In this document: positions 7,238 to 54,408 of the stretch, in pieces
Layout: each line of letters opens with the position of its first letter
Numbering within the stretch: the stretch's first letter is position 1
Assembly (NCBI GenBank): GCA_036867785.1
Contig: CP145417.1
Span: 124,001-188,000, forward strand
Length of the DNA stretch: 64,000 bases
Reading direction: 5' to 3'
DNA from: Plasmodiophora brassicae
Lineage: Eukaryota
The notes under the pieces: model-generated
Told to the model about the DNA's origin: nothing
The model's database searches: none
What the model saw: only the letters and a program-made list of their open reading frames with translations
Made by a program: the position numbers and the translations under genes

Positions 7238-10200
7238 TCATCGCCGGGCAATGAAGCCATTGTCCGCAGCATTCTGCTGGAACTCATTGTGCAAGTCGAC
7301 CAGGAATTCGTGGACGCTCGGCGATACGATGCGTTGGGCGGGCTCCGGTGCCGACATGTTGTGCGCTATCATCTCCAGGTGGCAAAGAACGTCGTCGAAC
7401 TTGTGGGGAACGTCGGGGCGCCTCCACACCTCGTCCTGAGCACAGGACAGGAAATACGCCGCTGTACGACCCAGGCTCCACATGTCGGAGGCCGCCGAAT
7501 AGACGCCGGCGTCCAGCGCTTCCGGCGCGATGTACCCTTGGGTACCGGCACCGGGTCGCATCTCCACGCCCGTCTGCGGGTCGTCCACACGGCACGCCAG
7601 ATCGAAATCGGTCACCCGCCAACCTTGCACGGCGACGCTGTACATGATGTTGTTCGGGTTAATGTCGCGGTGGACAATGCCGGCGCGAGATAACGTGCCG
7701 AGTGCGGCCAAGCCGTCGATAAAGAAGCGCACAAGCACCAAGCCGATGTCGTTAACTGACAACTGCCCGAAATCGACGTCTTCGAGGCGCTCTTCAACAA
7801 GAACAACGCCGCCGCCGTTGCTGCGCGGCAAGGCGATGGACCCGAACAGGCGTGCGACGCCGTCGCCCTGCGAGTCCCGCATGAGCGCGGGCTCTTCGGC
7901 GGCGCTGCCCATCTTGTGTTTGACGGCGAGGTCATCGACGAGTGCGACAGACGCAGCTTGGCGAGTACGACTTGGTCCGTCGGAGCGTCCGCGTTTGCGC
8001 GGTGGACGACCAGAAGAACTGGTGCGCGGACTCCCTGACTTTGTCGACGGCGTCCGCTGCGAATGCGGTCGCTTCGCCGTGGATGGCCGCGATGACGGTG
8101 GGGGGCCAAACGATGTCGGGTACGGAAACACGTCCTCGACGTCGCCATGCGACAGCATCGCGTGGTAGACACTGGCCTGACGACGCACGGCGTCGCAAAA
8201 GGAGGACAATGAGCGGAGCCGGTTCAGGACGTCGGCTTGTTGCGGCGCCGGATCAGGAGGGGGTCTTGTGCGAGCGACTGCAGCGGCGGCCGATGCGACG
8301 CGATGCGCCAACTCCGTGAGGAACGCCTCATTGTCGCGGTCCAACGACTGCGGCGCCTCAATGTCGCTGTAGACACCCTGGAGCTGCACTGCTTCATGCG
8401 AAGGCGTCCGTACGAAGGATCGCCAGGTCGGGTCGCAGCGAGCAACGAACGACACACGGCCCGCATCGTGGTCGTTATCAAAAATCGGAATCATGACAAC
8501 TGGCTGGAATTGAAACGCGCCGACAAGCAGCCCGAACTGGCGCAAGCTGCTCCGTTCGCCGACAGGACGACGTCGAACAGAACCGATGCGTGCAAGCAGC
8601 GTCACCGCCATCATGACGAGCAATTTGCGGAAATCCTTATGATCTTCTTCGTTCCCGACGGCGTGCGCCGATACTTCGACCAGAAGCAGAGTGTGATGAC
8701 TGAATAAATCCCGAACCCCGCGACGGACTTCGCCAGTCCGTCAAAGCGTTCGTTGCATCAGCTTGCCTGATCGTGACATTTTGACGGACTAACCAACGGT
8801 CACCGCCGTCCCGCCCGCCCCGTTCCGCCCGCTCCGTTCCGCCCGCTCCGTTCCGCCCGCTCCGTTCCGCCCGCTCCGTTCCGCCCGCTCCGTTCCTGCC
8901 GTCCCGTTTCCTGTCCGTCTACCGGTGTGTTCGCACCTCTGGCGGCCAACGTTCCCACCCATCTAGTCGACGCCGAACCGTTCCTGGACGCACTCATGGA
9001 CGACGCTCAGTGCTACCTCATCCATTATACGTGGACCGAGGACACCGAGTCAGAGCAGACGAAGATACCTGAAAAATACCAGGATTTTGCCGACGTGTTC
9101 GACGAGGCCACCGCCACATCCTTACCGCCGCACCGCGCCTCTGACTGCTCGATCGACCTGAAACCGGGGACGGAGCCTCCATTCTGTCGCCTCTACGGCT
9201 TGTCTCCCCGCGAACAGGTAGCCCTCAAGAAGTATTTGGAAGATAACCTCCAGTCGAACTTCATACGGCCGTCGCGTTCATCTGCCGGCGCGCCGATCCT
9301 TTTCGCGAAGAAGAAGGATGGTTCGTTACGGCTTTGCGTTGATTACCGAGGCCTGAACTCGGTCACCGTGAAGAACCGTTACCCACTTCCGCTCATCGAC
9401 CAGCTGCTTTCGACACTCGGTCAAGCAACGGTCTTCTCCAAGATCGACCTTCGAAGTGCGTACAACCAGATCCGCATTCGCGAAGGTGACGAATGGAAGA
9501 CAGCATTCCGGACACCGTACGGATTGTTCGAGTACCTGGTTATGCCCTTCGGGCTTGCCAACGCCCCGGCATCCTTTCAAGCCTTCATGAACGAGACATT
9601 CAGCGACTTCATTGACCGTTTCGTTGTTGTTTACCTTGACGACATCTTGATTTTCTCCAAGAATGCTGAGGAACATGAACAGCACGTGCGTTTGGTGCTC
9701 GAGCGTCTACGCTCCGCGCGCCTGACGGCCAAACTGTCTAAGTGCTTGTTCGACGCACCGGAGGTCGAATTCCTCGGCTACTTAGTGTCCAAGGACGGCC
9801 TCCGGTTGGATCCCAGCCGAGTAGACACAATACTCGCGTGGGCCCCGCCGCGTGACCTCCACGGGCTGCAAGTCTTCCTTGGGTTCGCCAACTTCTACCG
9901 AAAGTTCATCCCGCATTTCGCGGAGATCGCACTTCCCTTGACGAACCTTACTCGCGGGGAAACCGAATTTATCTGGAACGAGACTGCTTCGACCGCCTTC
10001 GCAACTCTGAAGAGCGCGTTCACACGCGCTCCGGTCCTCGCCCACTTCGATCCTAGCGTGCCGTGCGAGATTGAAACGGATGCCTCCGACTTCGCCATTG
10101 CCATGGTCCTCTCACAACGGGGCCGTGACGGGGACTTACACCCTCTGGCGTTCTTTTCGAGGAAACTGGACCCCGCTGAGATCCGATATGCGGTCTACGA

Positions 10201-12038
10201 CAAAGAGCTCCTGGCCGTTGTTGCGTCCTTCGAGAAATGGCGCCAGTTCCTGGATTCGGATGAACATCAGACACTTGTGCACAGCGACCACCGCAACCTC
10301 AAGTACTTCATGACGACCCACAAGCTTAATCCGCGCCAAATCCGATGGTCCCAACTGCTTAGCGGCTTCGACTTCATGATTCAGCACCGACCGGGCCGCT
10401 TGCACGGTAAACCTGACGCCTTGACGCGCCGCCCGGAGTACGTCCCGACGGCGTCTGAAGAAGGCATCCTGCAACAATCTCTCCAACTGCTCCCGCTTCA
10501 TCGCCTAGTTCCGTCCCCCGTGGTGGACGCGTTCACCGTCCACGCGGAGGCGGCTCCGTCCGAGCCTCTCCTAGACCGTATCCGACGACACCAAGCGAGT
10601 GATCCGTTCGTCGCCAAGATTGCCGGTCTGCTCGACCGACCTCAAGGTAGGAAGTATTGCCTGAGAGACGGCCTCCTGTACAAAGGACGCTCCTTGGTCG
10701 TCTCCGGAGACGAATGCAAGATCGAGATCCTCCGGCAACTCCACGATAATAGGGCCTCTGGTCACTTTGGTATCCGCAAAACGCTTGGGCTTGTCCAGCG
10801 TGAATTTTGGTGGCCTGGCATGAGGGCCTTCGTCAAACTGTACGTCTCATCCTGCGACATTTGTCAGAGAAGCAAGTCTCCGCGCCACAAACCGTCCGGG
10901 CTCCTGCTGCCTCTTCCCTTGCCGAGTTCTCTGTGGTCATCGATCTCAATGGATCTGATTGTCAAGCTTCCAGTTTCCGACGGCTACGATTCGGTCCTCG
11001 TCGTCGTCGACCGGTTTTCGAAAATGGCCCACTTCATTCCGTGCAAGGAGACCCTCACAGCGGTCGAGCTGTCCGACCTGTTTTTGCAGCAGATATTCCG
11101 CCTGCATGGCCTACCGGACGACATCGTCTCCGACCGGGGGCCCCAGTTCGTGTCGGCCTTCTGGAAGCACTTACTCGTGCTCTGGCGACACGATCCTCAT
11201 CGTTGTTATCCGGAGCCAGCATGCACGCGTAGTCAGCGAACTGCGGGGAGTACCCCTCAATCACGCCGGCCATAGACAGCTCCAACACCGACGTCAACAG
11301 CGGTTTGGTCAGCGGACGCAGCAATGCGTTAAGGAGCCGGTCCCATAAGCGGCAGTGGAACTGCAGCTCTTGGCGCTCGCCGCTCAGGGTTGATTGCTGA
11401 AACTCGACGACGACACCGATGGCGACCTCCCGACAGTACCGAACGTACTGATTCTTGATGATATCACCACCGTTGTTGACGTCGAGCGACCGCTTGACCA
11501 TGCGCGATGGGAACCAGTCTTCTTCTGGCAGCAACGCCATCATTGTGTCGCCGTCTCCTGAGACCTCGTTCTGCCAGGCGATGCTCCCATACGCGTCACG
11601 GTTGAAGTTGGGAACCAGCTGCTGCAGCGCATAGTCTGAGACGACGCCAAATTGCGACAGGGAATATGCCCGAGACAGGGACGCCAACGGGAACTTATTG
11701 CGCTGCATGGACGGCCTCAACTTGTTATACTCGTGGGCGGCGGTGTCGGACGCAGCGGCTGCCAGATCACCACGACGGTACTGCGGTGGCAAGGCAGGTA
11801 TATCGGCAGCGGCCCGCAGTCGGTCGTTGTACATCTGAATTAGCATGTTGGCGTGCTGTTCGGACCGCCGATCAGCGGGCAAAACCAGTAGCGCTTGATG
11901 ATACATCCAAGTTTGGTCCATGTCGACGCGTTGGCTTTCACGACAGACGGCGACGTGCCGCATTAGATCATCGATACACTCGTTGAGCCATGATGACGAG
12001 GAGGGCGACAGCGGTGCCGACGACGACGATGACGCCAT
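7238..12038 (-). pseudogene. REase-like + protein kinase gene copy 1, split by a retroelement
   Basis: Matches the 774-aa ORFs at 20762, 31649 and 46342. Interrupted at 8692-11175, with 8 bp of host sequence (GCAGCTGC) lost. Confidence 0.93.
8692..11175 (+). mobile_element. Ty3/gypsy family A, internally deleted and 3'-truncated copy
   Basis: 87-bp LTR 8692-8778 (one mismatch to the full copy), PBS, 14-bp VNTR, then RT (YLDD), RNase H and partial integrase. Gag, protease and the 3' LTR are missing. Confidence 0.95.
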
Positions 12039-30873: not shown

Positions 30874-31448
30874 GAGGGGAGGGGGGAGGGGGCTGCCCCA
30901 GTGACCTGGTTGGTCAAGCGAGCAGTCGTGGAACCGCAAGGTCCACAGTTCGAGGCACGAACTCTCTATGGAAATTCGTGGAGCAAGCAGTGACCTGGTT
31001 GGTCAAGCAAGCAGTCGTGGAACCGCAAGGTCCACAGTTCGAGGCACGAACTCTCCAAAAAAAATGTCCGGTACCCAACAGCCGCGAGTGTTGAAGGGGT
31101 GATCTACTGATCAGGCAGCCCAAAGTGCCAGAGCAATAAGGGTCTCGATTGAGCGTCTGGGGAGGTAAACGAACGGCCCGCAACTCAAGGTATGTCGGCA
31201 TCCCGGATCCCGGCATAGACGGTATGGCGACGAAGTTCGACAACGTGCAGTTGACAAGTCCGAGCGAATCACGTCCCGTTCCGATATCGTCCAGGCGCGA
31301 AGAACCCAGTACAAAGATGATGGGCCGCCACTGCCAGGCCGGGGGACGTTGGCGTTCTGCTGGCTGAACCTTCGGTCCTCGGACATGAGACCGAGTCGCC
31401 TGCGTGAAAAGCGCGAAGCACAAATAAACTAAACTAACTAAACTAACT
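30874..31448 (+). mobile_element. SINE copy with two head units
   Basis: Same body and AAACT tail; preceded by CCTCTTCAGTGAACG and a G-rich tract. Confidence 0.8.
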
Positions 31449-31648
31449 CGGACGTTTTGGCGTGCCTCACAGTGCACAAAGCAGAGAGTCTGTACCGTCA
31501 CACGATCTATCCACGCCCACAAGGGGCCATTGTTCCGCGTGACATGCGACCGGACGGGAAGACGGATTGTTGTATCGAACTGAAAAGCCCGAGAGAGTGG
31601 CGGCCTGACGATGACGACAAGCGATGGTGTGCGGGTGACCGAGGAGAA

Positions 31649-33973: not shown

Positions 33974-36052
33974 TGATGATGATGATGCGTTGCGGAATGC
34001 GCAATGGCCAAGTCCGTGGAGCGAGCAGCCTCTCCGAGAACACGCGCGTTGTACGTGGCTCGCAAACTGACGGGACTATGGACGACGTGGAGTCGGGTCT
34101 GGTCCCGGAATATTCACGCAACCCTGGATGACTTACATGGCGCTCGGACGCTCCAGGAACGGCCTCATTCGCTCATCGTGCGTGCGCAGCACCGAGGTCG
34201 ACGCGCACGCGCAGATGTCCCGTCGGGCTAGCTCCAACAACATGTCGCTGCGATACGCCGACAATACCAGGATCGGCTCATTTCATGGCCGCCCGACATG
34301 CTGTTGTCTTCTACATCACACGGCAGGTCGTCCCTGACGACGCGCCTGCCTGCACCTGGGTCGACTTCGCCGCCGACCAGTGACATTCCCCAACAGACCC
34401 AATACGATCTCAACACGTCCTTCTGGACGCTTGACTTCGCGCGCGTCATCGAACTCATTAGCCGCATGTAACACGTCGCGTCAAGCACGTCTGGGAGGAT
34501 GCCCTGCACCTCGCCGCCGGGTACGAATCGTCGCCTCAGGCACTGACCCAGGCCGTCTAACTCGTACTGCTGGACAGGGTACGCCTGCTGTCGCCTGCCA
34601 TCTCCCGTCCAGCATCAGCCGCAGCGGGGCAGCGGCGTCCTGCCTTGCCTGGCCGGGTCCAGCACCGCGCTGGCCTGATCCTCAGCGGAGGTGGCGACCT
34701 GGCCACCCGCCGGTCGCTGCGATCGGTCTGGCGCGCCCTGACCTGCACCATGCATCGATGTGTGTGCCGAACCACCAAGAGCGCCACAGAGGTCGCCGTC
34801 CGTCCGCCTGGCGAGCGTCGCTTGCCTGTCCTGCAGATCGTCCCGCAGACCAGCGGTGCCCAGCGCCTGTTGCCGCCGGTCGACATGCGAACGCGTGCCT
34901 GCCGTCGAAGACCCGCCGCCATCCCGGCCGTCACATCTTCACCTGTTGAACCGTTCAATACAAGCAGACGAAGTCTACACGTTCGTGTCCCGCGCCTGCA
35001 TGTCGTCCTGGCGTCAGCCGGCACCGAGCGGCAGCGTTCGAAGAAAACGGTGCAGGGGGGACGGGGCCCGTTGCCGGGCATGGGCTCCGTCGTCTCCCGC
35101 CACCTGCCGGTCGATCACGGCAAACTATGGCCGATCAGACCACTCCAGCGACGTAAGCAGGTCGTGCATGGCCGCGGGTAAGCAGGTCGGGCATGGCCGC
35201 GGGCAGGTACAACAGTACCTGTCACCCGATTTCCAGGCGGAGTGAACTTGCCAAGAAAGTCAAGCTATCCTCGCATTTCAGTCTTCATGGCGGATGTACA
35301 CAGCTACACGCGCCTTTGTTGTCTTGTCCGCCGATGAAATGACTGTGTATGTTTGGTCTACACTGTCCAAGTATAATTAAAATAATTACTGTAATTACAA
35401 CATGAATTAACGTAATTACGTAATTAAGATCGGCCCAGGCCGTAATTAAACCGCCCTGCCGACATCCCCTGAGTCTGACAGTAGGACGCAAAGCGCCAGT
35501 GTCCCGCCCTGGCCGATTTGGATGGCGAACGAACCCCGTTACCGTTCCACGCAACGACGGTGGTGCCGCACGTGACATGCGTGCGCCAGCGGTTCGATCA
35601 GGAGCCGAAGGTGGATCTTTCAAAATACGTAGCGCACTGGTGTTGGTTGGCTGATCGGATCGGTTTACTCGTTGAACACAGGGATCGCTGGATTGGCGTC
35701 GCGGAAGACCCCGCCGTTGTGTGGCCACCCACTCACGCAGTCCTTTCGACAGCGCGCGCTGAAAACGTTCCAGTGCCCGTGCCCTAGCCACGACATTGAC
35801 GTCGACCTTGAGCTGATAATATATATGGCGACGTGCAAAACCGGCATCAAAACGTTCTCTGCCCATCTCGACAGCGTCGTGTCCTCAAATTCGCCCTCGT
35901 TGTCGACGACGTCGTCAGACTCATTGTCCGTTGAAACATCCCAGGCGGAGACTGTCACGATCAGGCAAGCTGATGCAACGAACGCTTTGACGGACTGGCG
36001 AAGTCCGTCGCGGGGTTCGGGATTTATTCAGTTATCACAGAATAGTCCTCTT

Positions 36053-39000
36053 CTAGCGATTGGGTCTCCGCCGGTTTCGGGAGCGAGGGCCAGGTTTATC
36101 GGGATATCGAGCATGAAATTCAGCAATCGCTTGGTCCAGGCCTCCTGTCCCATGGAGATTGCCCGCGGGTTCCCAGGTGCGATCGGACGGGGAGTATCCT
36201 TCCCAATCTATGAGATATTGCAACCGCCCCGACCGGTATCGGGAATCCAAGATCGACTTAACGATGAACAGGGGCTGGTCGTCATCTTCCAATACAATGG
36301 GCGGCGGCGGTGGCTGTTGGCGATGTGGAAGGACATTAGGCGTATACGGTTCCAGCTGTGACACATGGAAGACGTTATGTAGGCGCGAGGTAGGAGGCAG
36401 CTTCACTTCGTATGCGACGGGGTTAACTGTGCGAACCACTTGGAAGGGTCCCAGCAGACGGTCATCCAGTTTCCCGCACGGGCGGCCAGTCGATAAGGTT
36501 CCACGCCTGAGCATGACGAGATCGCCCACCTGCAGTGGTGGTGGTTCGCGGCGACGGCGATCCGCAGAGCGCTTCATAGCGTCGACCGCCCGTTGCAGTT
36601 GGCCCTTCAAGTAGCGGCGAACCTTCTCAAGGAATTCGGCACGCTCATCGGCGGCTGGGTTACAGACTTGGCCATTCCTGGGTCGAGGCTCCGTCACCCT
36701 TGGATGAAACCCGTAGTTGGCGAAAAACGGCGACATGCCGGTGGCCGAATGGTCGGCGTTGTTGTACGCGAACTCGGCCATAGGCAGAAGTTGCAGCCAG
36801 TCGTCCTGCATGTAGCTAACATAGCAGCGTAAGTATTGTTCGAGGATCTGGTTCACGCGTTCCGTCTGGCCGTCGGATTCCGGGTGCCGGGATGAAGACA
36901 AGTTCCGTTGGATACCAAGACGGTCCAGTAAGTGCTTCCAGAAGGCCGACACGAACTGGGGCCCCCGGTCGGAGACGATGTCGTCCGGTAGGCCATGCAG
37001 GCGGAATATCTGCTGCAAAAACAGGTCGGACAGCTCGACCGCTGTGAGGGTCTCCTTGCACGGAATGAAGTGGGCCATTTTCGAAAACCGGTCGACGACG
37101 ACGAGGACCGAATCGTAGCCGTCGGAAACTGGAAGCTTGACAATTAGATCCATTGAGATCGATGACCACAGAGAACTCGGCAAGGGAAGAGGCAGCAGGA
37201 GCCCGGACGGTTTGTGGCGCGGAGACTTGCTTCTCTGACAAATGTCGCAGGATGAGACGTACAGTTTGACGAAGGCCCTCATGCCAGGCCACCAAAATTC
37301 ACGCTGGACAAGCCCAAGCGTTTTGCGGATACCAAAGTGACCAGAGGCCCTATTATCGTGGAGTTGCCGGAGGATCTCGATCTTGCATTCGTCTCCGGAG
37401 ACGACCAAGGAGCGTCCTTTGTACAGGAGGCCGTCTCTCAGGCAATACTTCCTACCTTGAGGTCGGTCGAGCAGACCGGCAATCTTGGCGACGAACGGAT
37501 CACTCGCTTGGTGTCGTCGGATACGGTCTAGGAGAGGCTCGGACGGAGCCGCCTCCGCGTGGACGGTGAACGCGTCCACCACGGGGGACGGAACTAGGCG
37601 ATGAAGCGGGAGCAGTTGGAGAGATTGTTGCAGGATGCCTTCTTCAGACGCCGTCGGGACGTACTCCGGGCGGCGCGTCAAGGCGTCAGGTTTACCGTGC
37701 AAGCGGCCCGGTCGGTGCTGAATCATGAAGTCGAAGCCGCTAAGCAGTTGGGACCATCGGATTTGGCGCGGATTAAGCTTGTGGGTCGTCATGAAGTACT
37801 TGAGGTTGCGGTGGTCGCTGTGCACAAGTGTCTGATGTTCATCCGAATCCAGGAACTGGCGCCATTTCTCGAAGGACGCAACAACGGCCAGGAGCTCTTT
37901 GTCGTAGACCGCATATCGGATCTCAGCGGGGTCCAGTTTCCTCGAAAAGAACGCCAGAGGGTGTAAGTCCCCGTCACGGCCCCGTTGTGAGAGGACCATG
38001 GCAATGGCGAAGTCGGAGGCATCCGTTTCAATCTCGCACGGCACGCTAGGATCGAAGTGGGCGAGGACCGGAGCGCGTGTGAACGCGCTCTTCAGAGTTG
38101 CGAAGGCGGTCGAAGCAGTCTCGTTCCAGATAAATTCGGTTTCCCCACGAGTAAGGTTCGTCAAGGGAAGTGCGATCTCCGCGAAATGCGGGATGAACTT
38201 TCGGTAGAAGTTGGCGAACCCAAGGAAGACTTGCAGCCCGTGGAGGTCACGCGGCGGGGCCCACGCGAGTATTGTGTCTACTCGGCTGGGATCCAACCGG
38301 AGGCCGTCCTTGGACACTAAGTAGCCGAGGAATTCGACCTCCGGTGCGTCGAACAAGCACTTAGACAGTTTGGCCGTCAGGCGCGCGGAGCGTAGACGTT
38401 CGAGCACCAAACGCACGTGCTGTTCATGTTCCTCAGCATTCTTGGAGAAAATCAAGATGTCGTCAAGGTAAACAACAACGAAACGGTCAATGAAGTCGCT
38501 GAATGTCTCGTTCATGAAGGCTTGAAAGGATGCCGGGGCGTTGGCAAGCCCGAAGGGCATAACCAGGTACTCGAACAATCCGTACGGTGTCCGGAATGCT
38601 GTCTTCCATTCGTCACCTTCGCGAATGCGGATCTGGTTGTACGCACTTCGAAGGTCGATCTTGGAGAAGACCGTTGCTTGACCGAGTGTCGAAAGCAGCT
38701 GGTCGATGAGCGGAAGTGGGTAACGGTTCTTCACGGTGACCGAGTTCAGGCCTCGGTAATCAACGCAAAGCCGTAACGAACCATCCTTCTTCTTCGCGAA
38801 AAGGATCGGCGCGCCGGCAGATGAACGCGACGGCCGTATGAAGTTCGACTGGAGGTTATCTTCCAAATACTTCTTGAGGGCTACCTGTTCGCGGGGAGAC
38901 AAGCCGTAGAGGCGACAGAATGGAGGCTCCGTCCCCGGTTTCAGGTCGATCGAGCAGTCAGAGGCGCGGTGCGGCGGTAAGGATGTGGCGGTGGCCTCGT

Positions 39001-40387
39001 CGAACACGTCGGCAAAATCCTGGTATTTTTCAGGTATCTTCGTCTGCTCTGACTCGGTGTCCTCGGTCCACGTATAATGGATGAGGTAGCACTGAGCGTC
39101 GTCCATGAGTGCGTCCAGGAACGGTTCGGCGTCGACTAGATGGATGGGAACGTTGGCCGCCAGAGGTTCTTCAGTGCTTGGTGCCGGCAAGGGAACGTGG
39201 TCGATCCGCGTCCCGTCGCCTTGATTAGAATCCGTGGGCCGTACGTCGCACGACGACTGTGGAGCATCTCCGGCTAGAACGTCAGGGCCGGCGTTCGGCG
39301 GGGCGATCGGACAGGCGTCGTCAGATGACGTGTTTAGATAAGCACGAAGGTCGACGCGTGCGGGTTCGCGGCACATAGTGACGAAGGCAAGCGCCCAAGC
39401 GGCCGCCACGATGGATGAGCACATGAACAGGCTGACCACCTGGCGTGCCCTGGAACCGTCGTCCAAACGACAATCTGGTAGACGTCGACCGGCTCCCCGC
39501 CTGTGTCGCTGCTCCCGCGCCGGCGACGTTAGCCAGCCTGTCTGGTCGGGGAACGATTCGAGCTCGAGGCAGTTCGCAGGGGTGTTACCGGTGTCAGCCG
39601 TTTCCAGGTCGCCAGCGGCTTTGTCCTGAGTCTCAATTGCGGCTGTCGCCAAGGACTCTGCCACCCGGCGTTCATCGTTGGCCGCAGGCGGCAATGGTGT
39701 CACGATCAGGTCTTGTGCGGAAGTTGGATCTGGATGTTGTTTTGTGTTAACAGGCGCCTGGGCGATGAGCGGAGCTGCACTAGAGGCGTCCAGGGCCGGA
39801 TAACGGCAGTCGTCGTGTGGCGCAGCCACGCTTGCCTCGGTTGTCTCAGCTTCTGCATGGCCAGGATCCGCCACAGTTGTCGGCGTTGACGTTGACGGCG
39901 AGGGGGGGCACTGGCGCGGCGAGACGAGCCGCCGGCGCCAATCCACATCTGGATTAGTCTGGGCTAGCCAGGGCAGACCCAGGATGACGGGATAGGTCGG
40001 CGAATTGATCAGATTCAGGACGATCTCACACGAGAACTGGGCGTCCACCGTCGTTCTCAACGGCTGAGTCTCCTGTGATATAGGTGCGAGCTGGCGGCCG
40101 TCGACAACGCGGACAGGTATCGGACGATGCGTCGGGCGGGTAGGCAGAACGTGGAGCCGCGCGAAGGACCAGTCGATAAAGTTGCTAGTCGCGCCACAGT
40201 CGATCAAGGCCGTTGTCGAGATACTTTCGGACCCGGTGTATATGGTCATCGGAAGTACGAGATGCGGGACAGAGCGGGCGTGGAGAAACATGAGATCGCT
40301 TATTTGAACAGGGTCGGGTTCGGATGACAATGCAGAGTTTACTGGGTGGCCGGCGAACCCGTTGGCGGTCACCCTTGGACATTTCCC
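36053..40387 (-). CDS. Pol of family A (PR-linker-RT-RH-IN-chromodomain), reached by -1 frameshift
   Basis: LIDCGA, YLDD, TDASD, HHCC and D,D35E integrase, GPF motif, chromodomain [17 protein letters not shown]. Confidence 0.93.
40315..40387 (-). promoter_or_regulatory. -1 programmed ribosomal frameshift signal
   Basis: G GGA AAU heptamer in gag frame, 6-nt spacer, predicted H-type pseudoknot. Confidence 0.8.
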
Positions 40388-41217
40388 GGTGCAACCGGCG
40401 GCCGTTTCGGGCAATCCGCGATCCGGTGGCCATCTTCTTTGCAGTAGAAGCAGAGGCCGTCCTTGCGGGCACGCTCACGGGCATCGGCGGCGACAACCTT
40501 CGGAACGGGGTAGCGCGGGCAGAGGTGTTTCGCCTTTTTGACCATCTCGTCGAAGTCGGTGATCATGTCCTCGAACAGTTTTTCCGACAAGGCAGTATGC
40601 AGCGACTTCCGGAACTTCGACGCGCGCCGGGCCGAACTCATCTTGAAGGTTGCATCCGCGCGCTGAAGCGCTTGATACAAATTGTTGAACATCAACACAT
40701 GCTCTTCGACAGGTTCGGTCTGGGTGAGGTTGTCGAAGCACTCCTCCAGCTGTTCGAACGTCGGCACCGGAAACCATTTTGACATCGCGTAGGACAGGTC
40801 GGCCATCGTGGCGTCGTCCGGCAGCCCGAAATAGACTTCCAACGCCGGGCCTTCCAGCGATCTAAGAAGGGCGCTGTGCGCCGCCGGCGGAAGGCGGGTC
40901 GTCGATGACGGGAGCTGCAGCGTCCTTGACAGACACTTCAGAAAGTCGCGGGAGTTCGTGGAACTGTCGCGAATACGCCCGGTAAAGCGGGGCAGGTGGA
41001 TCTGGTGGTCGACGATGTGTCGGGATGTCGGCGACGGCTCGCTCGGCGGCATCTTGTCGGGCAGCGAGCGATTTATCGCTGTCCCAACGGCATCTTCGAC
41101 CCGGTCGGCCACTACGGACTGCATAGCTTTCAGCTGGTGCAGCATGTCGCTGACAGTGAGCGTGAGGTCCCGCACTTGATCTGCCAGTGCGGCGATCTGG
41201 TCCTCGCTCGTTGTCAT
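40369..41217 (-). CDS. Gag of family A
   Basis: ATG at 41217; CCHC knuckle [14 protein letters not shown]. Confidence 0.9.
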
Positions 41218-41256
41218 CGCGAACACACCGGTAGACGGACAGGAAACGGGACGGCA

Positions 41257-41368
41257 GGAACGGAGCGGGCGGAACGGAGCGGGCGGAACGGAGCGGGCGG
41301 AACGGAGCGGGCGGAACGGAGCGGGCGGAACGGAGCGGGCGGAACGGAGCGGGCGGAACGGGGCGGGC
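41257..41368. repeat. 14-bp VNTR (GGAACGGAGCGGGC) x8 in the retroelement leader
   Basis: 7 perfect + 1 variant unit; 6 units in the copy at 8813-8896. Confidence 0.92.
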
Positions 41369-41390
41369 GGGACGGCGGTGACCGTTGGTT

Positions 41391-41401
41391 AGTCCGTCAA
41401 A
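41391..41401 (-). promoter_or_regulatory. Self-priming-type primer binding site
   Basis: Element-sense TTTGACGGACT, 1 nt after the 5' LTR, is the exact complement of LTR bases 41446-41436. Confidence 0.8.
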
Positions 41402-44400
41402 ATGTCACGATCAGGCAAGCTGATGCAACGAACGCTTTGACGGACTGGCGAAGTCCGTCGCGGGGTTCGGGATTTATTCAGTTATCACAGAGACAGCTTC
41501 GATGTCGATATCGGAAAAGACGGCCTCGCCTCATTCGCCATATCGACTGCATCGTCCATGACCTGCCGCAGCTGTTCGTTGGCATCCCGTACGTGACCAG
41601 GGGAAAACATGAACAAACACCAGCGCCGCCAGTTATTATACGCCGCGTACAGATTGAGACACAGAGCGTACACTCTGCAAGAAGGCACCGTCAGGCAGCG
41701 CAAGTGGGCCCTTCACTGAATTGTTGATATCTGTACAGTACGGAAAGGGCTCGGTGGAGTGGTATCAGATCAACTGATCTATGGGTCAGACGCAGAGCGT
41801 CCGGAAATGCGCTCGAATTCCTGTGGCTGGAAAGAATCGCATGCTTTGCCCAGTCGTTGAGCCCGTTACGCAGCGTTGCCGCGCTTGCCTTCCTCCCTCG
41901 TCGGGGCAGCGTGTAGGATTTCTCCAATATAGTCAACTCCTGTATCAGAACTAGCTCGATCACAGGCCATACTGGGCCTGTGTCGTATCATGCTGTAGCC
42001 ATGCCAGTGTCAACAGAGGTGTCAGTGAGGGATAGCCAGTGATGCCATGCAGTGACATCACCAGAGTCAGGCTGATGTAGGGAATGAGGCGTAAATAGCC
42101 GGCCCATTTCTACACTGCCTTTCTCCGAACTCATGACCGGAATCAGCATGATACGGGATGATTGATGAGGGATGATTGATGATGCCCAGATGATGACCAT
42201 GCAGAAGGGTAGTGTGAGACTCGGGTGCCAATTATGAGCGCCCACTACTCACTAAAAACCACCTTGTAACCCGATGGGAGAAATCGGTGGAAAATCCATT
42301 TGCGGACACCCCCAGCAGGAATGTCAACCATCGGAATACCTCTGCTAGAAGATCAGATAAACATTCCACCTGCGGAACGTACCTGACGAGGACATCGGCA
42401 GTGGGGCGCTCAACCCACATGGGAGGAGCCCTTGACCACATCCACCTCCGAAGTATCATTCACACGACTCAACGACCGGCACACATGTGCGGGCCCCCAG
42501 CGCTACAGGAGCCTCAATCCCGCGGTGAAGAGGAACTTCGAAGATGTTGCCGAATGCCTCGTGAGAAAATGTGTCAGAACGGCAATCGCTCAATAAGAGC
42601 ACCAATGGCATACTAGGAGCGCCATGGATAGAGATAGCCCAGATATGAGCGAGAATGGCATACTAGCTCACGATAGGAGCGCCATTGATAACCATGGTGC
42701 CGCTATGGCAACCAGGTTGGATAATGCGGTTTCCAATATTGGAGAACCATGATCATGATCATCTGCGTATTGTTCACCATCGAATCAATACGGTCGCGCC
42801 GTCCACGTATATATATATAGGTACCGACGCTAGGAAGAGCGACTTATACTGAAGTCACCTATGCAACAATAATCATGCATTAATGGCGTTCATTGCCATC
42901 ATACCTAGTTGCTGCGTCGCTTCCTCCCTCTGGATGCGGTACTCTTGGTGCGCGCCCGTTTCGCGGTCGGCGGTACCAATTGAGATAACGCCTCGGCATG
43001 CTGATGATCTTCGCATCGGCACCGCTTTTGAACAGTTCTGCTTCTATTGCAGGGACCGCCCTGGACGCGCCCGCCGCCGCTCGACAATGCGACTCTTGAC
43101 GTATGCTGCTCGTCCATCCCTATCTTTGCACCAATCTGACCACGATTACTGCAGCACTGTTGCCCATTCGGGCCATGATCGTGCATCTAGCTGCGCCACG
43201 TCTGGTATGCGGCCTGGATGAGCAACGGCAACGTGCCGTCCGTTGCATGGCACGTTGGGAGCCAACTCACCACATCCCTCGGATCGCCGTCCTTGACGCG
43301 TCTGGCGGCCCGGCGTGGTCGGGCGCTGACGTCGGCGCCGTCAAACGGCGCTGATTCCCGGAGCCACTACGAGCAAAGCGCGTCCTGCTGGGCGCCTGTT
43401 AACAAGCCCATACGTCCGGACGAACGCACTGCGCCCCCATACCCGGTACGGTTCCTCGCCTAACGCACAGAACCAGGTCATCTAGTATACGTGCTGGGCA
43501 GGACACGCGTGCCGTCTCCCGTCCGTCCAGCATGGGCACCTGCAAGGCAGCAGTCGTCATGCCTGGACGAGACGGGGCGGGGACAACGTCGTGCCGACCT
43601 GCTCGTCAGGTGTGGCGGCGCGCCGATCGTTGCAGTCGTGCGCGTGCGCTCGCGCATACCAGAATCACCGACGCCAGGTGCCGCTACACACAGAACACGT
43701 CGTGCTGGACGCTTGCCCACCAGTCCGACACGTCTGGACGAACGCATGGATTTGGTATGCTGCGTGCCCTATTAATTTGCATAAAGAGACGCGTTCTTAC
43801 CCATGCTGTCAGGACACGTCTGCCGTCACCTGACGAATCCCGTCCAGTGTGAGTCCCTGCAAGCCAGCAGTCCTCGTGCGCCGGATAAACGGTTACGCGT
43901 CTGCACCGACCTGCGTCCTCAGCTACCATGACGTCCTGGCCACCTGACGATCGTTGTAACTGAAGGCGCGCGTCCCTGATCCTGCACCATGTAACGGTGG
44001 AAGTCTTGTCTATCAAGGGCGTCGCCGAGTTTACCTGTTGGGCAGCGCCTTCTTGCCGTGTCGGATGTCCAGCAGGACAGCGGCTCCCTGCGCCAGTGGT
44101 CTCCAGTCGACATGACATGCGCCCTTCTGCCTGTAACGGACCACCCGCCGACCTCCATACCAGCATATCGCGCGTTCGAAAAGCGTTCACTACAATCGGA
44201 TGAGGTACTACAGATGGTCCTGGAGTCGGGCGCCTTAGGGAAGCATGCGCTGCAATCGGTGCACGGCGCGCGTGCGTCGTCGTTCGAGAAGTCTAAAGTT
44301 GCCCTCCTTTGTTGGGAGCATGCCGGATAAGGCCAGATGAGTAGCGCAAACAAGTGGGGTGGGCCAGAGCAATTGGTTTCCTGTGACCCCCATCAAATGC

Positions 44401-45958: not shown

Positions 45959-46123
45959 GATATCGTCCAGGCGCGAAGAACCCAGTACAAAGGTGATGGT
46001 CCGGCACTGCCAGGCCGGGGGACGTTGGCGTTCTGCTGGCTGAACCTTCGGTCCTCGGACATGAGACCGAGGCGCCTGCGTGAAAAGCGCGAAGCACAAA
46101 TAAACTAAACTAACTAAACTAAC
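45959..46123 (+). mobile_element. SINE 3' fragment
   Basis: SINE body from GATATCGTCCAGG to the AAACT tail. Confidence 0.8.
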
Positions 46124-46341
46124 GCGGACGTTTCGGCGTGCCTCACAGTGCACAAAGCAGAGAGTCACTACCGTCACACGATCGATCCACGAAGTTAGGT
46201 AGTGGTAGCCCACAAGGGGCCATTGTCCCGCGTGACATGCGACCGGACAGGAAGACGGATTGTTGTATCGAACTGAAAAGCCCGAGAGAGTAGTGGCCTG
46301 ACGATGACGACAAGCGATGGTGTGCGGGTGACCGAGGAGAT

Positions 46342-48666
46342 TTATCGCCGGGCAATGAAGCCATTGTCCGCAGCATTCTGCTGGAACTCATTGTGCAAAT
46401 CGACCAGGAATTCGTGGACGCTCGGCGGTACGATGCGTTGGGCGGGCTCCGGTGCCGACATGTTGTGCGCTATCATCTCCAGGTGGCAAAGAACGTCGTC
46501 GAACTTGTGGGGAACGTCGGGGCGCCTCCACACCTCGTCCTGAGCACAGGACAGGAAATACGCCGCTGTACGACCCAGGCTCCACATGTCGGAGGCCGCC
46601 GAATAGACGCCGGCGTCCAGCGCTTCCGGCGCGATGTACCCTTGGGTACCGGCGCCGGGTCGCATCTCCACGCCCGTCTGCGGGTCGTCCACACGGCACG
46701 CCAGATCGAAATCGGTCACCCGCCAACCTTGCACGGCGACGCTGTACATGATGTTGTTCGGGTTAATGTCGCGGTGGACAATGCCGGCGCGAGATAACGT
46801 GCCGAGTGCGGCCAAGCCGTCGATAAAGAAGCGCACAAGCACCAAGCCGATGTCGTTAACTGACAACTGCCCGAAATCGACGTCGTCGAGGCGCTCTTCA
46901 ACAAGAACGACGCCGCCGCCGTTGCTGCGCGGCAAGACGATGGACCCGAACAGGCGTGCGACGCCGTCGCCCTGCGAGTCCCGCATGAGCGCGGGCTCTT
47001 CGGCGGCGCTGCCCATCTTCTGTTTGACGGCGAGGTCATCGACGAGCGCGACAGACGCAGCTTGGCGAGTACGACTTGGTCCGTCGGAGCGTCCGCGTTT
47101 GCGCGGTGGACAACCAGATGAACTCGTGCGCGGACTCCCTGCTTTTTTCGCCGGCGTTCGCTGCGAATGCGGCCGCTTCGCCGTGGATGGCCGCGATGAC
47201 GGTGGGGGGCCAAACGATTTCGGATACGGAAACACGTCCTCGACGTCGCCATGCGACAGCATCGCGTGGTAGACACTGGCCTGACGACGCACGGCGTCGC
47301 AAAAGGAGGACAATGAGCGGAGCCGGTTCAGGACGTCGGCTTGTTGCGGCGCCGGATCAGGAGGGGGTCCTGTGCGAGCGACTGCAGCGGCGGCCGATGC
47401 GACGCGATGCACCAACTCCGTGAGGAACGCCTCATTGTCGCGGTCCAACGACTGCGGCGCCTCAATGTCGCTGTAGACACCCTGGAGCTGCACTGCTTCA
47501 TGCGAAGGCGTCCGTACGAAGGATCGCCAGGTCGGGTCGCAGCGAGCAACGAACGACACACGGCCCGCATCGTGGTCGTTATCAAAAATCGGAATCATGA
47601 CAACTGGCTGGAATTGGAACGCGCCGACAAGCAACCCGAACTGGCGCAAGCTGCTCCGTTCGCCGACAGGACGACGTCGAACAGAACCGATGCGTGCAAG
47701 CAGCGTCACCGCCATCATGACGAGCAATTTGCGGAAATCCTTATGATCTTCTTCGTTCCCGACGGCGTGCGCCGATACCTCGACCAGAAGCAGAGGCAGC
47801 TGCCGTGCTCTGGCGACACGATCCTCATCGTTGTTATCCGGAGCCAGCATGCACGCGTAGTCAGCGAACTGCGGGGAGTACCCCTCGATCACGCCGGCCA
47901 TAGACAGCTCCAACACCGACGTCAACAGCGGTGTGGTCAGCGGACGCAGCAATGCGTTAAGGAGCCGGTCCCATAAGCGGCAGTGGAACTGCAGCTCTTG
48001 CCGCGCGCCGCTCAGGGTCGATTGCTGAAACTCGACGACGACACCGATGGCGACCTCCCGACAGTACTGGACGTACTGATTCTTGATGATATCACCACCG
48101 TTGTTGACGTCGAGCGACCGCTTGACCATGCGCGATGGGAACCAGTCTTCGTCTGGCAGCAACGCCATCATTGTGTCGCCGTCTCCTGAGACCTCGTTCT
48201 GCCAGGCGATGCTCCCATACGCGTCACGGTTGAAGTTGGGAACCAGCTGCTGCAGCGCATAGTCTGAGACGACGCCAAATTGCGACAGGGAATACGCCCG
48301 AGACAGGGACGCCAACAGGAACTGATTGCGCTGCATGGACGGCCTCAACTTGCTATACTCGTGGGCGGCGGTGTCGGACGCAGCGGCTGCCAGATCACCA
48401 CGACGGTACTGCGGTGGCAAGGCAGGTATATCGGCAGCGGCCCGCAGTCGGTCGTTGTACATCTGAATCAGCATGTTGGCGTGCTGTTCGGACCGCCGAT
48501 CAGCGGGCAAACCCTGTATCGCTTGACGATACAGCCAAGTTTGGTCCATGTCGACGCGTGGGCTTTCACGATAGACGGCGACGACCCGCATTAGATCATC
48601 GACACACTCGTTGAGCCATGATGACGACGAGGGCGACAGCGGTGCCGACGACGACGATGACGCCAT
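46342..48666 (-). CDS. REase-like + kinase, copy 4 (774 aa)
   Basis: Intact ORF. Confidence 0.85.
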   Translation of the reverse strand: MASSSSSAPLSPSSSSWLNECVDDLMRVVAVYRESPRVDMDQTWLYRQAIQGLPADRRSEQHANMLIQMYNDRLRAAADIPALPPQYRRGDLAAAASDTAAHEYSKLRPSMQRNQFLLASLSRAYSLSQFGVVSDYALQQLVPNFNRDAYGSIAWQNEVSGDGDTMMALLPDEDWFPSRMVKRSLDVNNGGDIIKNQYVQYCREVAIGVVVEFQQSTLSGARQELQFHCRLWDRLLNALLRPLTTPLLTSVLELSMAGVIEGYSPQFADYACMLAPDNNDEDRVARARQLPLLLVEVSAHAVGNEEDHKDFRKLLVMMAVTLLARIGSVRRRPVGERSSLRQFGLLVGAFQFQPVVMIPIFDNDHDAGRVSFVARCDPTWRSFVRTPSHEAVQLQGVYSDIEAPQSLDRDNEAFLTELVHRVASAAAAVARTGPPPDPAPQQADVLNRLRSLSSFCDAVRRQASVYHAMLSHGDVEDVFPYPKSFGPPPSSRPSTAKRPHSQRTPAKKAGSPRTSSSGCPPRKRGRSDGPSRTRQAASVALVDDLAVKQKMGSAAEEPALMRDSQGDGVARLFGSIVLPRSNGGGVVLVEERLDDVDFGQLSVNDIGLVLVRFFIDGLAALGTLSRAGIVHRDINPNNIMYSVAVQGWRVTDFDLACRVDDPQTGVEMRPGAGTQGYIAPEALDAGVYSAASDMWSLGRTAAYFLSCAQDEVWRRPDVPHKFDDVLCHLEMIAHNMSAPEPAQRIVPPSVHEFLVDLHNEFQQNAADNGFIARR

Positions 48667-50354
48667 TGATGATGATGATGCGTTGCGGAATGCGCAATGG
48701 CCAAGTCCGTGGAGCGAGCAGCCTCTCAGAGAACACGCGCGTTGTACGTGGCTTGCAAACTGACGGGACTATGGAAGACGTGGAGTCGGGTCTGGTCCCG
48801 AAATCACGCAACCCTGGATGACTTACATGTCGCTCGGACGCTCCAGGAACGGCCTCATTCGCTCATCGTGCGTGCGCAGCACCGAGGTCGACGCGCACGC
48901 GCAGATGTCCCGTCGGGCTAGCTCCAACAACATGTCGCTGCGATACGCCGACAATACCAGGGTCGGCTCATTTCATGGCCGCCCGACATGCCGTTGTCTT
49001 CATCATCACACGGCAGGTCGTCCCTGACGACGCGCCTGCCTGCACCTGGGTCGACTTCGCCGCCGACCAGTGACATTCCCCAACAGACCCAATACGATCT
49101 CAACACGTCCTGCTGGACGCTTGACTTCGCGCGCGTCATCGAACTCATTAGTCGCATGTAACACGTCGCGTCAAGCACGTCTGGGAGGATGCCCTGCACC
49201 TCGCCGCCGGGTACGAATCGTCGCCTCAGGCACTGACCCAGGCCGTCTAACTCGTGCTGGACAGGGTACGCCTGCTGTCGCCTGCCATCTCCCGTCCAGC
49301 ATCAGCCGCAGCGGGGCAGCGGCGTCCTGCCGGGCCTGGCCGGGTCCAGCACCGCGCTGGCCTGATCCTCAGCGGAGGTGACGACCTGGCCACCCGCCGG
49401 TCGCTGCGATCGGTCTGGCGCGCCCTGACCTGCACCATGCATCGATGTGTGTGCCGAATCACCAAGAGCGCCACTGAGGTCGCCGTCCGTCCGCCTGGCG
49501 AGCGTCGCTTGCCTGTCCTGCAGATCGTCCCGCAGACCAGCGGTGCCCAGCGCCTGTTGCCGCCGGTCGACATGCGAACGCGTGCCTGCCGTCGAAGACC
49601 CGCCGCCATCCCGGCCGTCACATCTTCACTTGTTGAACCGTTCAATACAAGCAGACGAAGTACGTCTACACGTTCGTGTCCCGCGCCTGCATGTCGTCCT
49701 GGCGTCAGCCGGCACCGAGCGGCAGCGTTCGAAGAAAACGGTGCAGGGGGGACGGGGCCCGTTGCCGGGCATGGGCTCCGTCGTCTCCCGCCACCTGCCG
49801 GTCGATCATGGCAAATTATGGCCGATCAGACCACTCCAGCGACGTAAGCAGGTCGTGCATGGCCGCGAGTAAGCAGGTCGGGCATGGCCGCGGGCAGGTA
49901 CAACAGTACCTGTCACCCGATTTCCAGGCGGAGTGAACTTGCCAAGAATGTCAAGCTATCCTCGCATTTCAGTCTTCATGGCGGATGTACACAGCTACAC
50001 GCGCCTTTGTTGTCTTGTCCGCCGATGAAATGACTGTGTATGTTTGGTCTACACTGTCCAAGTATAATTAAAATAATTACTGTAATTACAACATGAATTA
50101 ACGTAATTACGTAATTAAGATCGGCCCAGGCCGTAATTAAACCGCCCTGCCGACATCCCCTGAGTCTGACAGTAGGACGCAAAGCGCCAGTGTCCCGCCC
50201 TGGCCGATTTGGATGGCGAACGAACCCCGTTACCGTTCCACGCAACGACGGTGGTGCCGCACGTGACATGCGTGCGCCAGCGGTTCGATCAGGAGCCGAA
50301 GGTGGATCTTTCAAAATACGTAGCGCACTGGTGTTGGTTGGCTGATCGGATCGG

Positions 50355-51806
50355 TTGATTGCGCGGCCCGACATCGATCGGGTTCGGGTCGCTTGTGTTT
50401 TGTGGATGGATGACGATATACGTCAGAGTTCGTTGCCATCCCCAGCCCATTGAGCAAAGGTCGGCGCCAATCAACGTCAAGGCATGGGCCGACTCCGTGG
50501 CGGGCGTCGTCGACGCGGCCGACGTCCTGACGACGTCAACAGGGCCATCTGCAACATCCTACACTGTCGGCCGACGACGCTTGTCTTCGACATCCGTTGT
50601 CCTCGATGGCATGCCGCGCCTGCCTGCTCTGTCTGCGCCCGCGCCGACGTCGCCGCCGACCAACTGCACGAGCCAATAGATTGGCTGCGACCACAACTCG
50701 TCCTGCAGGGTGTCTACTGGCGCGCCAGGTACGGCAGGTCTGATATCGTGCACCTGCGGGACGGATGCGAGTTGTCGCCTGGCTCCTGGATATCGGGCGT
50801 TCTGGACTGGGATTCGCCTGCCGCCGTCAGGCCAGTGTGAGGCCCTGCCGAAAACTGGCCAATGCATCCGCTCTTGTACGACATGCTGGACCATTAACCT
50901 ACAATCTCTGCTGACATCCCTGGCATTCTGGCAGGCACAGGCTATGCTGGTAAGAATCCTGCCGAGAACCGTGTCACCGCTGATGACCCCGTGATTCTGA
51001 CCATGATCCACAGACGTACCGTCAGCCAGGTCCTGACCTTGTTGGAATTCGGGTGACGTTAGTCGTCGCGTAATCCAGTTCCAGCCCTTGTTGGCGTTCA
51101 CGTGACGACGATCTACTTGAACGACTCCATTCTGGTATGCTGCCCGTCGTTTACCATTAGCAGCGCTTCTGAACGGTTCTGCTTCTATTGCAGGGACCGC
51201 CCTGGACGCGCCCGCCGCCGCACGACGATATGACGCTTGACGTATGTTACCCGTCTATCCCTATCGTTGCCCTAATGTGAGCACGCCTACTGCAGCACTG
51301 TCGCCCGTTCGGACCGTGATCGTGCATCTAGCTGCGCCACGTCTGGTATATGGCCTGTCTGAGCAACGGCCACGTGCCGTCAGTGGCATGGCACATACAA
51401 AGCCAACCCGCCACGTCACTCGGATCGCCGTCCTGCATGTTGCTCCTGACCCGGCTGGCGGCCCTGCGTGCTCGGGCGCAGAGGTCGGCGCCATGAAACG
51501 GCGCTGATGCCCCGGGAGCCACAAGGACCAGAACACGTCCTGCTGGGCGCCTGACAACAAACCCATACGTCCGGACGAACGCGCTGCGCCCCCATAACCG
51601 GTACGGTTCCTCCTCTAAGGCACAGAACCAGGTCTTCTAATACGTGCTGGGCAGGACACGCCTACCGTCTCCCGTCCGTCCAGCATGGGCACCTGCAAGG
51701 CAGCAGTCGTCCTGCGTAGGCGAGTCGGGGCGAATTCAACGTCGTGCCGACCCGGCTTGTTAGCTGTGGCGGCACGCCGATCGTTGTAATCGGTCGCGCG
51801 CGCTCC
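50355..51806. repeat. ~1.45-kb direct repeat, copy 2
   Basis: Near-identical to 44465-45915. Confidence 0.92.
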
Positions 51807-53942: not shown

Positions 53943-54408
53943 GCAACCATCCCCAGAAGTGTCATACAGATGGAAGAGCACGTCGCCGTCACCGATGTTC
54001 TCCAACGCTTCTGGTATAATGGCACCTGAGTAGAGAATTGCACCCGGAAGAGCGAGGAACTTGGACTCGGGCTTGTCATTCTTGGTGACGCGGACCCAGC
54101 CGCCATGAAGCACAGGACCGTGTTTCGACCGGAGGACGCCACATTCCGACGTCTGGGTGTTGAGGTCCCCTGGCAGCGCAATAATACACGGAGGCGTTGG
54201 AATGTGGCGTCCTTCTGCGATCTACACACGGTCCTGTGCTTCATGGCGGCTGGGTCCTCGTCACCAAGAATGACGAGCCCGGGTCCAAGTTCCTCGCCCT
54301 TCCGGGATACAATTCTCTACTCAGGTGCCACTATACCAGAAGCGCTGGAGAACATCGGTGACGGCGACGTGCTCGTCGATCTGTACGACACGTTCTGGGG
54401 ATGGTTGC
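53943..54408. repeat. Long imperfect inverted repeat (fold-back)
   Basis: Arms 53943-54154 and 54192-54408, spacer ~37 bp. Confidence 0.92.

Follow-up and report, generated by a model that had tools for sequence, protein, structure and literature searches.

A complete plasmodiophorid Ty3/gypsy chromovirus with 87-bp long terminal repeats that probably primes reverse transcription with its own RNA

The window analysed here is a 64,000-nucleotide stretch of the Plasmodiophora brassicae genome (contig CP145417.1, positions 124,001 to 188,000 of the forward strand). It contains a complete and intact Ty3/gypsy chromovirus of 5,537 bp, which lies on the minus strand at positions 35953-41489 of the window and was inserted recently. 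The arrangement of its 87-bp long terminal repeats (LTRs), and of the bases that follow the 5′ LTR, makes it probable that this plasmodiophorid element is autonomous and primes the synthesis of minus-strand DNA with its own RNA, like Tf1 of Schizosaccharomyces pombe. [quoted passage not shown]

The 5′ LTR, which has the sequence TGTGATAAC...GATCGTGACA with TG..CA ends (41489-41403 on the minus strand), is identical to the 3′ LTR in 87 of 87 bases. The sequence past the 5′ LTR is TTTTGACGGACT and contains no TGG-type PBS, as the original prediction had stated. Over their whole length, the eleven bases TTTGACGGACT (41401-41391) are reverse-complementary to AGTCCGTCAAA, which occupies LTR positions 44-54 (41446-41436), as verified by a script. 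The Watson-Crick pairing ends at 11 bp on either side, where the next positions are both mismatched, which also agrees with the prediction; one additional G:U pair is possible on the PBS-proximal side, between LTR position 55 and the T at 41402. The AATAAAT motif that had been noted about 30 nt upstream of LTR position 44 is present at LTR positions 12-18, from -32 to -26, and the boundary at which the LTR-side partner begins reads gcc|AGT. An origin of the complementarity by chance is favoured by the high GC content of the LTR and by the frequent occurrence of short matches (6-8 nt). However, a match of 11 nt was reached in only one of 20,000 mononucleotide shuffles of the LTR and the downstream sequence, and none of 300 LTR shuffles reached the observed complementarity when it was scored with G:U pairs allowed. 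Among natural frames of 87 + 53 nt along the window, 18 of 18,230 contain an 11-nt match, the element's own copies among them.

The RNA that would result from transcription starting at LTR position 44 is predicted to fold into a compact structure. The 62-nt segment from LTR position 44 to just past the PBS has a folding energy of -23.7 kcal/mol (z -4.45), and none of 200 shuffled sequences is as stable. The predicted fold consists of a 12-bp closing stem formed by the primer and the PBS, and a 32-nt loop that contains a 5-bp stem-loop.

Covariation of the PBS with the LTR had been proposed as a check of self-priming, and it is found in the relatives of the element. Metagenome contigs were scanned with an alignment of pol, which gave 80 loci with identities of 37-53%, four of them in the sister clade of the element. 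The nearest relatives for which the 5′ LTR and the following bases are available are L071, L002, and L036 (51-53% and 47% pol identity). The 270-bp LTR of L071 ends in TTAACA and is followed by GT and the PBS TTGTTCACCTT, which forms 11 of 11 pairs with AAGGTGAACAA, located in the LTR 31 nt past the start of TATAAATA. The LTR of L002 is 446 bp long and ends in CTGACA; it is followed by GT and the PBS TTGATTCGAATT, all 12 bases of which pair with AATTCGAATCAA, 32 nt past TATAAATA. L036 is an old copy with LTRs that are 92% alike. Its PBS TTAACGAGAGT forms 10 of 11 pairs with ACTCTCGTCAA in the 3′ LTR, 32 nt past TATAAATA, and the partner in the 5′ LTR carries two further transitions. The spacer between the LTR and the PBS is 2 nt long in each of the three loci, TATAAATA starts at -31 or -32, and the partner starts at an A preceded by a C. 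The contig of the fourth locus, L001, ends before the PBS, and its LTR core is as in L071. The element, L071, L002, and L036 have four primers that are unrelated in sequence. Every one of them is complementary to the PBS of the same element, and their position is conserved. The recurrence of the same positional pattern with different sequences effectively refutes chance complementarity, the probability of which is negligible.

The four loci of the sister clade share with the element a polypurine tract, a primer about 32 nt past the TATA-like box (TATAAATA in the relatives and AATAAAT here), an LTR end of the form ..ACA, and a PBS of 11-12 nt. The relatives are further characterized by LTRs that start with TGTCA.., a primer that begins at CA, and the 2-nt spacer. 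They differ from the element in the length of the LTRs (270-446 bp, compared with 87 bp here) and of the R and U5 regions of the LTR (135-158 nt, compared with 44 nt), and in the sequence CACCAGT, which follows the primer in all four and is absent from the element. The contigs of L071 and L002 each contain two head-to-tail copies, with a single LTR between one pol and the next gag. This layout could be either a true tandem array with a shared LTR or the product of an assembly walk through a multicopy element.

The same self-complementary pattern is present in a fungal-like clade, sister to a Microbotryum protein, which contributes at least six further primer/PBS pairs. The primers of this clade include AGTCTGAAAT, CAGTTCGAATAT, AGTTTGAATAT (with one G:U pair), AGTCTGTAAATT, and AGTCTGATAAT, positioned 32-34 nt past TATAAGTA or TATAAATA. 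The number of distinct primer/PBS pairs is at least ten overall. Across the self-complementary elements, the LTR-side partner starts 31-34 nt past the start of the TATA box. The boundary of the partner has a C at -1 and an A at +1 in nine of the ten tabulated elements, and is shifted by one base in the tenth. A C/A dinucleotide is the usual initiator of RNA polymerase II, and the TATA spacing together with the CA boundary fits a transcription start at 41446.

The pattern was quantified using a strict signature, which combines ACA, a spacer of 1-2 nt, an exact complement of at least 10 nt within 900 nt, and a TATA start between -36 and -28. Upstream of pol in the 80 loci, the signature has nine matches, compared with none on the reverse strand of the same regions. 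Inside the pol ranges there are three matches, two of which are the true LTRs of L002 and L071, and one match on the reverse strand. The total is 11 of 80 loci, against 0, 1, and 1 in the controls. The strict signature replaced a loose scan (CA, 0-3 nt, and a complement of at least 10 nt), which was noisy, with 38 matches upstream against 23, 47, and 17 in the controls. The LTR boundaries of L009, L015, L029, and L036 were set by hand, and most of the loci beyond the 16 with resolvable LTR pairs have no 5′ LTR on their contig. A scan of viral_contigs from IMG/VR provided eight loci (L081-L088), none above 45% identity. One of them, L081, has an LTR of about 294 bp and a 10-nt self-complementary PBS, ACATCAAAGT, and lacks a TATA box. 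Several of the L081-L088 contigs are LTR retrotransposons assembled as apparent circles, with exact terminal overlaps of 49-156 nt.

The position of the element among its relatives was determined from a FastTree tree of the reverse transcriptase, RNase H, and integrase core of 110 sequences, rooted on the other gypsy element of the window. The nearest neighbours of the element are two Plasmodiophora proteins (support 1.0), which two metagenome proteins join next (0.99). The next joins outward are the clade of L071, L002, and L036 (0.97), amphibian proteins (0.98), and the fungal-like self-priming clade (0.88). Green-algal chromoviruses and sequences from Planoprotostelium are positioned outside. 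The closest named proteins to pol are two proteins of P. brassicae, with identities of 68% and 62%. For a non-transposon open reading frame at 57017-59053, the database contains only four relatives, namely the sequence itself, a protein of P. brassicae with 80% identity, and two proteins without a name. The similarity of these two gene products identifies the host as a plasmodiophorid, P. brassicae or a species close to it, and bears out the original prediction of a non-fungal protist.

The 11-nt pairing might instead serve as a structural stem in the RNA leader, with a role in packaging, dimerization, translation control, or promoter-proximal structure, and the primer might be something else that binds there or nearby. 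The pairing closes a compact and stable predicted fold, a third copy of the motif in the U3 region of the LTR allows the formation of alternative hairpins, and the primer is a prediction from the sequence, all of which would be compatible with such a stem. However, the 3′ arm is located at the place required of a PBS, 1-2 nt past the LTR in ten of the ten tabulated elements, and the 5′ arm begins at the TATA-spaced CA dinucleotide. Furthermore, there is no alternative TGG PBS adjoining the LTR, and in Tf1 and Tj1 this arrangement is accepted as the mark of self-priming, as described in the consulted part of PMC4600332. A structural stem that does not prime is therefore an unlikely interpretation.

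Alternatively, the PBS might be complementary to a host tRNA or to an internal tRNA fragment, as in the half-tRNA priming of copia-type elements, and the match to the LTR would then be secondary. The comparison with tRNAs covers the window only, and the primers of some relatives contain TTCGAA-type strings that presumably recall, if loosely, the T-arm of a tRNA. Against this, the site lacks the TGG start, which excludes pairing with the intact 3′ CCA end of a tRNA. In addition, the PBSs of the four related elements are unrelated in sequence, and every one finds its match inside the LTR of its element, at an equivalent TATA-spaced position. A shared tRNA primer would not produce such a pattern. 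Priming by a tRNA is very improbable.

Similarly small is the probability that the three copies of GACGGACT/AGTCCGTC, at LTR positions 31-38 and 44-51 and in the PBS, are DNA sites for a host or element protein that binds near the promoter. The three 8-mers are located within 70 bp, and two of them form a palindrome across the presumed transcription start, as might be expected of protein-binding sites. However, the U3 copy is missing in most of the self-priming relatives. The sequence of the motif is not conserved in the relatives, whereas the complementarity is, which is the mark of base pairing and not of a protein site.

The sequences show the anatomy of the element, its complementarity, the covariation in relatives, and the conserved spacing of TATA and CA; we infer where transcription starts, where RNase H cuts, how far R extends, and where the poly(A) site lies. 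In the favoured mechanism of self-priming, transcription would start about 32 nt past the beginning of AATAAAT, at the A of LTR position 44 (position 41446 on the minus strand). The initial 11 nt of this RNA, AGUCCGUCAAA, would fold back onto the PBS one base past the LTR, and the pairing of the primer with the PBS would close a 32-nt loop containing the small U5 stem-loop. The element's own RNase H, the domain of which is present in pol, would cut after nucleotide 11. The freed 3′ OH would be extended through U5 and R, resulting in strong-stop DNA. The plus strand would subsequently copy the primer, and the PBS would thus be rewritten from R in each cycle. The re-templating of the PBS, which is deduced from the established model, would account for both the perfect match between the PBS and the LTR and their covariation between lineages.

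Several observations weigh against self-priming or limit its support. The one canonical AATAAA is found upstream of the putative start, and the 44 nt of R and U5 contain no evident poly(A) signal. After the cut, 33 nt would be left for strong-stop DNA and strand transfer. The short remainder and the lack of a poly(A) signal imply that R must be very short, or that the transcripts run past the LTR. In the first quantitative pass over the 16 loci with resolvable LTR pairs, five were clearly positive, three were weak (8-9 nt, a length that 14-32 of 300 shuffles reached), L056 was borderline with 7 of 300 shuffles, one had a TGG-type site, and six were negative; two of the negative loci, L009 and L036, became positive after correction of their LTR boundaries. 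The comparison with host tRNAs reached the window only, in which ARAGORN identified 0 tRNA genes and Rfam had 0 matches at the gathering score. The 24 public sequencing runs are represented by Logan contigs, the kind of which is only guessed, and the contigs of the element span its flanks too and are uninformative about the start and end of the RNA. Finally, the named elements Tf1, sushi-ichi, and MAGGY are not included in the tree, and we therefore only infer the membership of the element in the Tf1/sushi group.

The sequence GACGGACT at LTR positions 31-38 is a direct copy of the PBS core. It is predicted to form an 8-bp hairpin with LTR positions 44-51 with an energy of -14.3 kcal/mol, and four of 200 shuffled sequences fold as well. 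It is conceivable, although doubtful, that the U3 copy serves as a decoy in a near-minimal self-priming LTR, which would be composed of a 43-nt U3 and 44 nt of R and U5. At the 3′ end of the RNA, where the PBS is 5.4 kb away, the U3 arm would form a local hairpin with nucleotides 1-8 of R. The 5′ copy of R, not being preceded by U3, would alone be free to reach the PBS and be cut. If so, self-priming would be specific to the 5′ end of the RNA and the 3′ copy of R would be protected for strand transfer. U3 arms of this type, unrelated in sequence, are also present in L071 and L001, where they form an 11-bp hairpin at the same place (-17.6 kcal/mol, 0 of 200 shuffles). The arm was not found in most other self-priming relatives. 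A different role of the hairpin, to keep the plus-strand strong-stop DNA from folding onto itself, is not supported. The minimum-energy structure of the 99-nt strand of the LTR and PBS, folded either as DNA or as RNA, is the 11-12-bp stem of primer and PBS, not the hairpin of U3 and R.

The positions of the features of the element are listed in Table 1. As originally proposed, the element is an LTR retrotransposon with 87-bp LTRs, which is established by the target-site duplication (TSD), the polypurine tract, the intactness of gag and pol, and the empty-site allele of run X13; an LTR length of 87 bp is very short for a complete element, in keeping with the LTRs having been called unusually small. 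The Pfam domains of pol are arranged in the order RVP_2, RVT_1, RT_RNaseH, Integrase_H2C2, rve, SH3_Tf2-1, and Chromo. The best solved relative is Ty3 Gag-Pol (E 1.8e-153).

Table 1. Features of the self-complementary chromovirus and of its defective copy in the window
Feature	Position in window	Strand	Basis or remark
5′ TSD copy, GTCTC	41490..41494	-	flank reading; empty-site joint 35947->41490 in run X13
5′ LTR, 87 bp, TGTGAT...GTGACA	41403..41489	-	identical to 36039-35953
Putative TATA box AATAAAT, LTR 12-18, at -32..-26 from LTR 44	41472..41478	-	same place as TATAAATA/TATAAGTA of relatives
U3 arm GACGGACT, LTR 31-38, identical to PBS core	41452..41459	-	8-bp hairpin with LTR 44-51
Putative self-primer AGTCCGTCAAA, LTR 44-54	41436..41446	-	presumed first 11 nt of RNA; presumed start 41446
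Predicted small U5 stem-loop, AUCAG cuugc CUGAU, within loop closed by primer:PBS	41410..41424	-	fold
PBS TTTGACGGACT, after single T (41402) past LTR	41391..41401	-	sequence
14-nt tandem repeat, 8.5 copies, in 173-nt leader from PBS to gag ATG	41257..41375	-	sequence
gag, first ATG 41217, CCHC zinc knuckle, stop 40371-40369	40369..41217	-	open frame
Candidate -1 frameshift heptamer GGGAAAT, 9 nt before gag stop	40381..40387	-	suggested by pol in -1 frame
pol open frame, 1473 codons without stop: protease, reverse transcriptase, RNase H, integrase (H2C2, core, SH3), chromodomain	36053..40474	-	
Polypurine tract AGAAGAGGAC, overlaps pol stop, 5 nt before 3′ LTR	36045..36054	-	
3′ LTR, 87 bp	35953..36039	-	identical to 5′ LTR
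3′ TSD copy, GTCTC	35948..35952	-	flank reading; empty site
Defective family copy	8692..11175	+	5′ LTR (1 mismatch), PBS 8780-8790, leader repeat

The insertion is polymorphic among the public runs. The contigs of four runs (X1, X3, X4, and X13) were aligned to positions 35800-41650 of the window. The element is present together with its flanks in X1, X3, and X4. One contig of X13 joins 35947 to 41490 with five shared letters and skips 5,542 nt, which is exactly the element and one copy of the TSD. This precise empty-site allele indicates that the insertion is real and fairly recent. Loose contig ends at the outer edges of the LTRs enter other genomic contexts, indicating that there are further copies of the family. 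Variants of the family are seen in the four runs at window positions 41390, 41479, and 36447. In one variant of the family, the LTR and PBS are kept and the internal sequence diverges exactly after the PBS (41390). In another, the first approximately 10 nt of the LTR differ behind a conserved AGAAGAGGA tract, which is kept in the variant copy in X3 and X4, and a further one has a 1-nt insertion in the U3 hairpin arm. At a loose end in run X1, the LTR terminus adjoins a PBS with two altered positions, which hints at a subfamily with this PBS. The 14-nt leader repeat has a contig word depth several-fold above that of the rest of the element in all four runs, and the repeat may also occur elsewhere in the genome.

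The second copy of the family in the window is defective. Past the leader repeat, an internal deletion leads directly to pol residue 428, and the copy is truncated at pol residue 1183; the truncation also removed about 8-9 bp of the flank. The arrangement of the LTR and PBS reported for positions 8692-8790 (+) is indeed the same as in the complete element, with one mismatch at LTR position 7. As a member of this family with an identical PBS and LTR partner, the copy does not constitute independent evidence of self-priming. The 14-nt leader repeat is found here at 8806-8934, and the two copies in the window differ in its register and number.

An unrelated Ty3/gypsy element is located at 14387-19629 on the plus strand. 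It has a pol identity of 23%, 165-bp LTRs with TG..CA ends, a CGAT TSD, and a polypurine tract that abuts the 3′ LTR. The sequence after its 5′ LTR, GAGATCTCTTG..., has neither a TGG start nor a complement in the LTR (the best match is 5 nt, which 260 of 300 shuffles equal). A unit of about 4 kb with an 808-codon protein-kinase open reading frame is present in four copies that are 96-98% alike (6500-8691+11176-12735, 20047-24019, 30900-35665, and 45959-50356). Both retrotransposons and further repeats are nested between or inside these units, and the window is repeat-rich and segmentally duplicated. A 58-nt repeat that ends in a run of A (…CTCTCCAAAAAAA) is located at the edges of larger repeats at 6577-6634 and 31006-31063, with an inverted copy at 25125-25182. 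This repeat may represent the tail of a poly(A) retroelement, or else a unit similar to a short interspersed element; neither ARAGORN nor Rfam gave a match to it. The less repetitive right part of the window contains nested inverted repeats (53959-54391) with arms of 87-92 nt that are 91-92% complementary, separated by spacers of 80 and 259 nt. The GC content of the window is 50-67% in 2-kb bins and mostly near 60%.

The element shares several properties with Tf1 and Tf2 of S. pombe and Tj1 of S. japonicus. These elements lack a tRNA-type PBS, and have a short PBS just past the 5′ LTR with a complement inside the LTR. Their pol ends in a chromodomain, and the LTR-side partner is regarded as the mRNA's 5′ end. 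The target duplication of Tf1 is reportedly 5 bp long, as is that of the element, whereas the LTR of Tf1 is said to be several hundred bp long, compared with 87 bp. Tf1, Tf2, and Tj1 have fungal hosts, whereas the element comes from a plasmodiophorid protist and its description is based on sequence. The PBS-like U3 copy that forms a hairpin with the primer is another difference from Tf1 and Tj1. In the element, gag and pol occupy separate frames and a candidate -1 slippery site is present; Tf1, by contrast, has a single open reading frame, and Tj1 has a stop codon (for Tj1, the consulted part of PMC4600332).

According to the consulted parts of PMC6317226 and PMC4600332, self-priming is known for Tf1, Tf2, and Tj1 and has been inferred for members of the group from fungi, vertebrates, and mosses. 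The same part of PMC6317226 describes self-priming as typical both of the Tf1/sushi group and of the Tcn1 clade of mosses. The group at large includes MAGGY, Pyret, Skippy, Cft-1, sushi-ichi, and the amphibian Amn elements, alongside the moss Tcn1 clade. In the consulted literature the Tf1/sushi group is reported from fungi, vertebrates, and non-seed plants and not from Rhizaria, the lineage in which the element is found. The dictyostelid Skipper elements have no complement in the LTR, according to the consulted part of PMC5006619. Mag-like elements of Culex have LTRs of 119-304 bp and PBSs for Leu, Ser, or Arg tRNAs (PMC3286476). The Mag lineage resembles the element in the very short LTRs of a complete retrotransposon, and differs in being primed by tRNAs and in having insect hosts. 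The LTR of mag from Bombyx mori is reportedly 77 bp long. The 87-bp LTR is probably not a record minimum, and no general lower bound on LTR length was found in a literature search. A report of self-priming in plasmodiophorids was not found in the literature either, with supplements, which possibly contain transposable-element libraries, lying outside the search. The consulted part of a P. brassicae pangenome preprint names Gypsy and Copia elements as the main repeats and is silent on priming, and it reports that structural variation is concentrated in transposon-rich regions (bioRxiv 10.64898/2026.10.14.759018).

The evidence supports the known Tf1/sushi kind of self-priming in a new host lineage, in combination with a near-minimal LTR, and not a new mechanism. 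The presence of the full signature of self-priming in a plasmodiophorid, a member of the Rhizaria, would widen the host range of the mechanism. The occurrence of at least ten co-varying primer/PBS pairs across a clade that includes fungal-like and amphibian elements argues that self-priming is an old and stable trait of this branch of chromoviruses. The 87 bases of the LTR would accommodate the integrase ends as well as the promoter, the start site, the primer, R, and U5, and the element may therefore be a compact natural test case for a minimal LTR. The element is intact, and the public runs differ in whether they contain the insertion; the family may therefore still be mobile in this crop pathogen.

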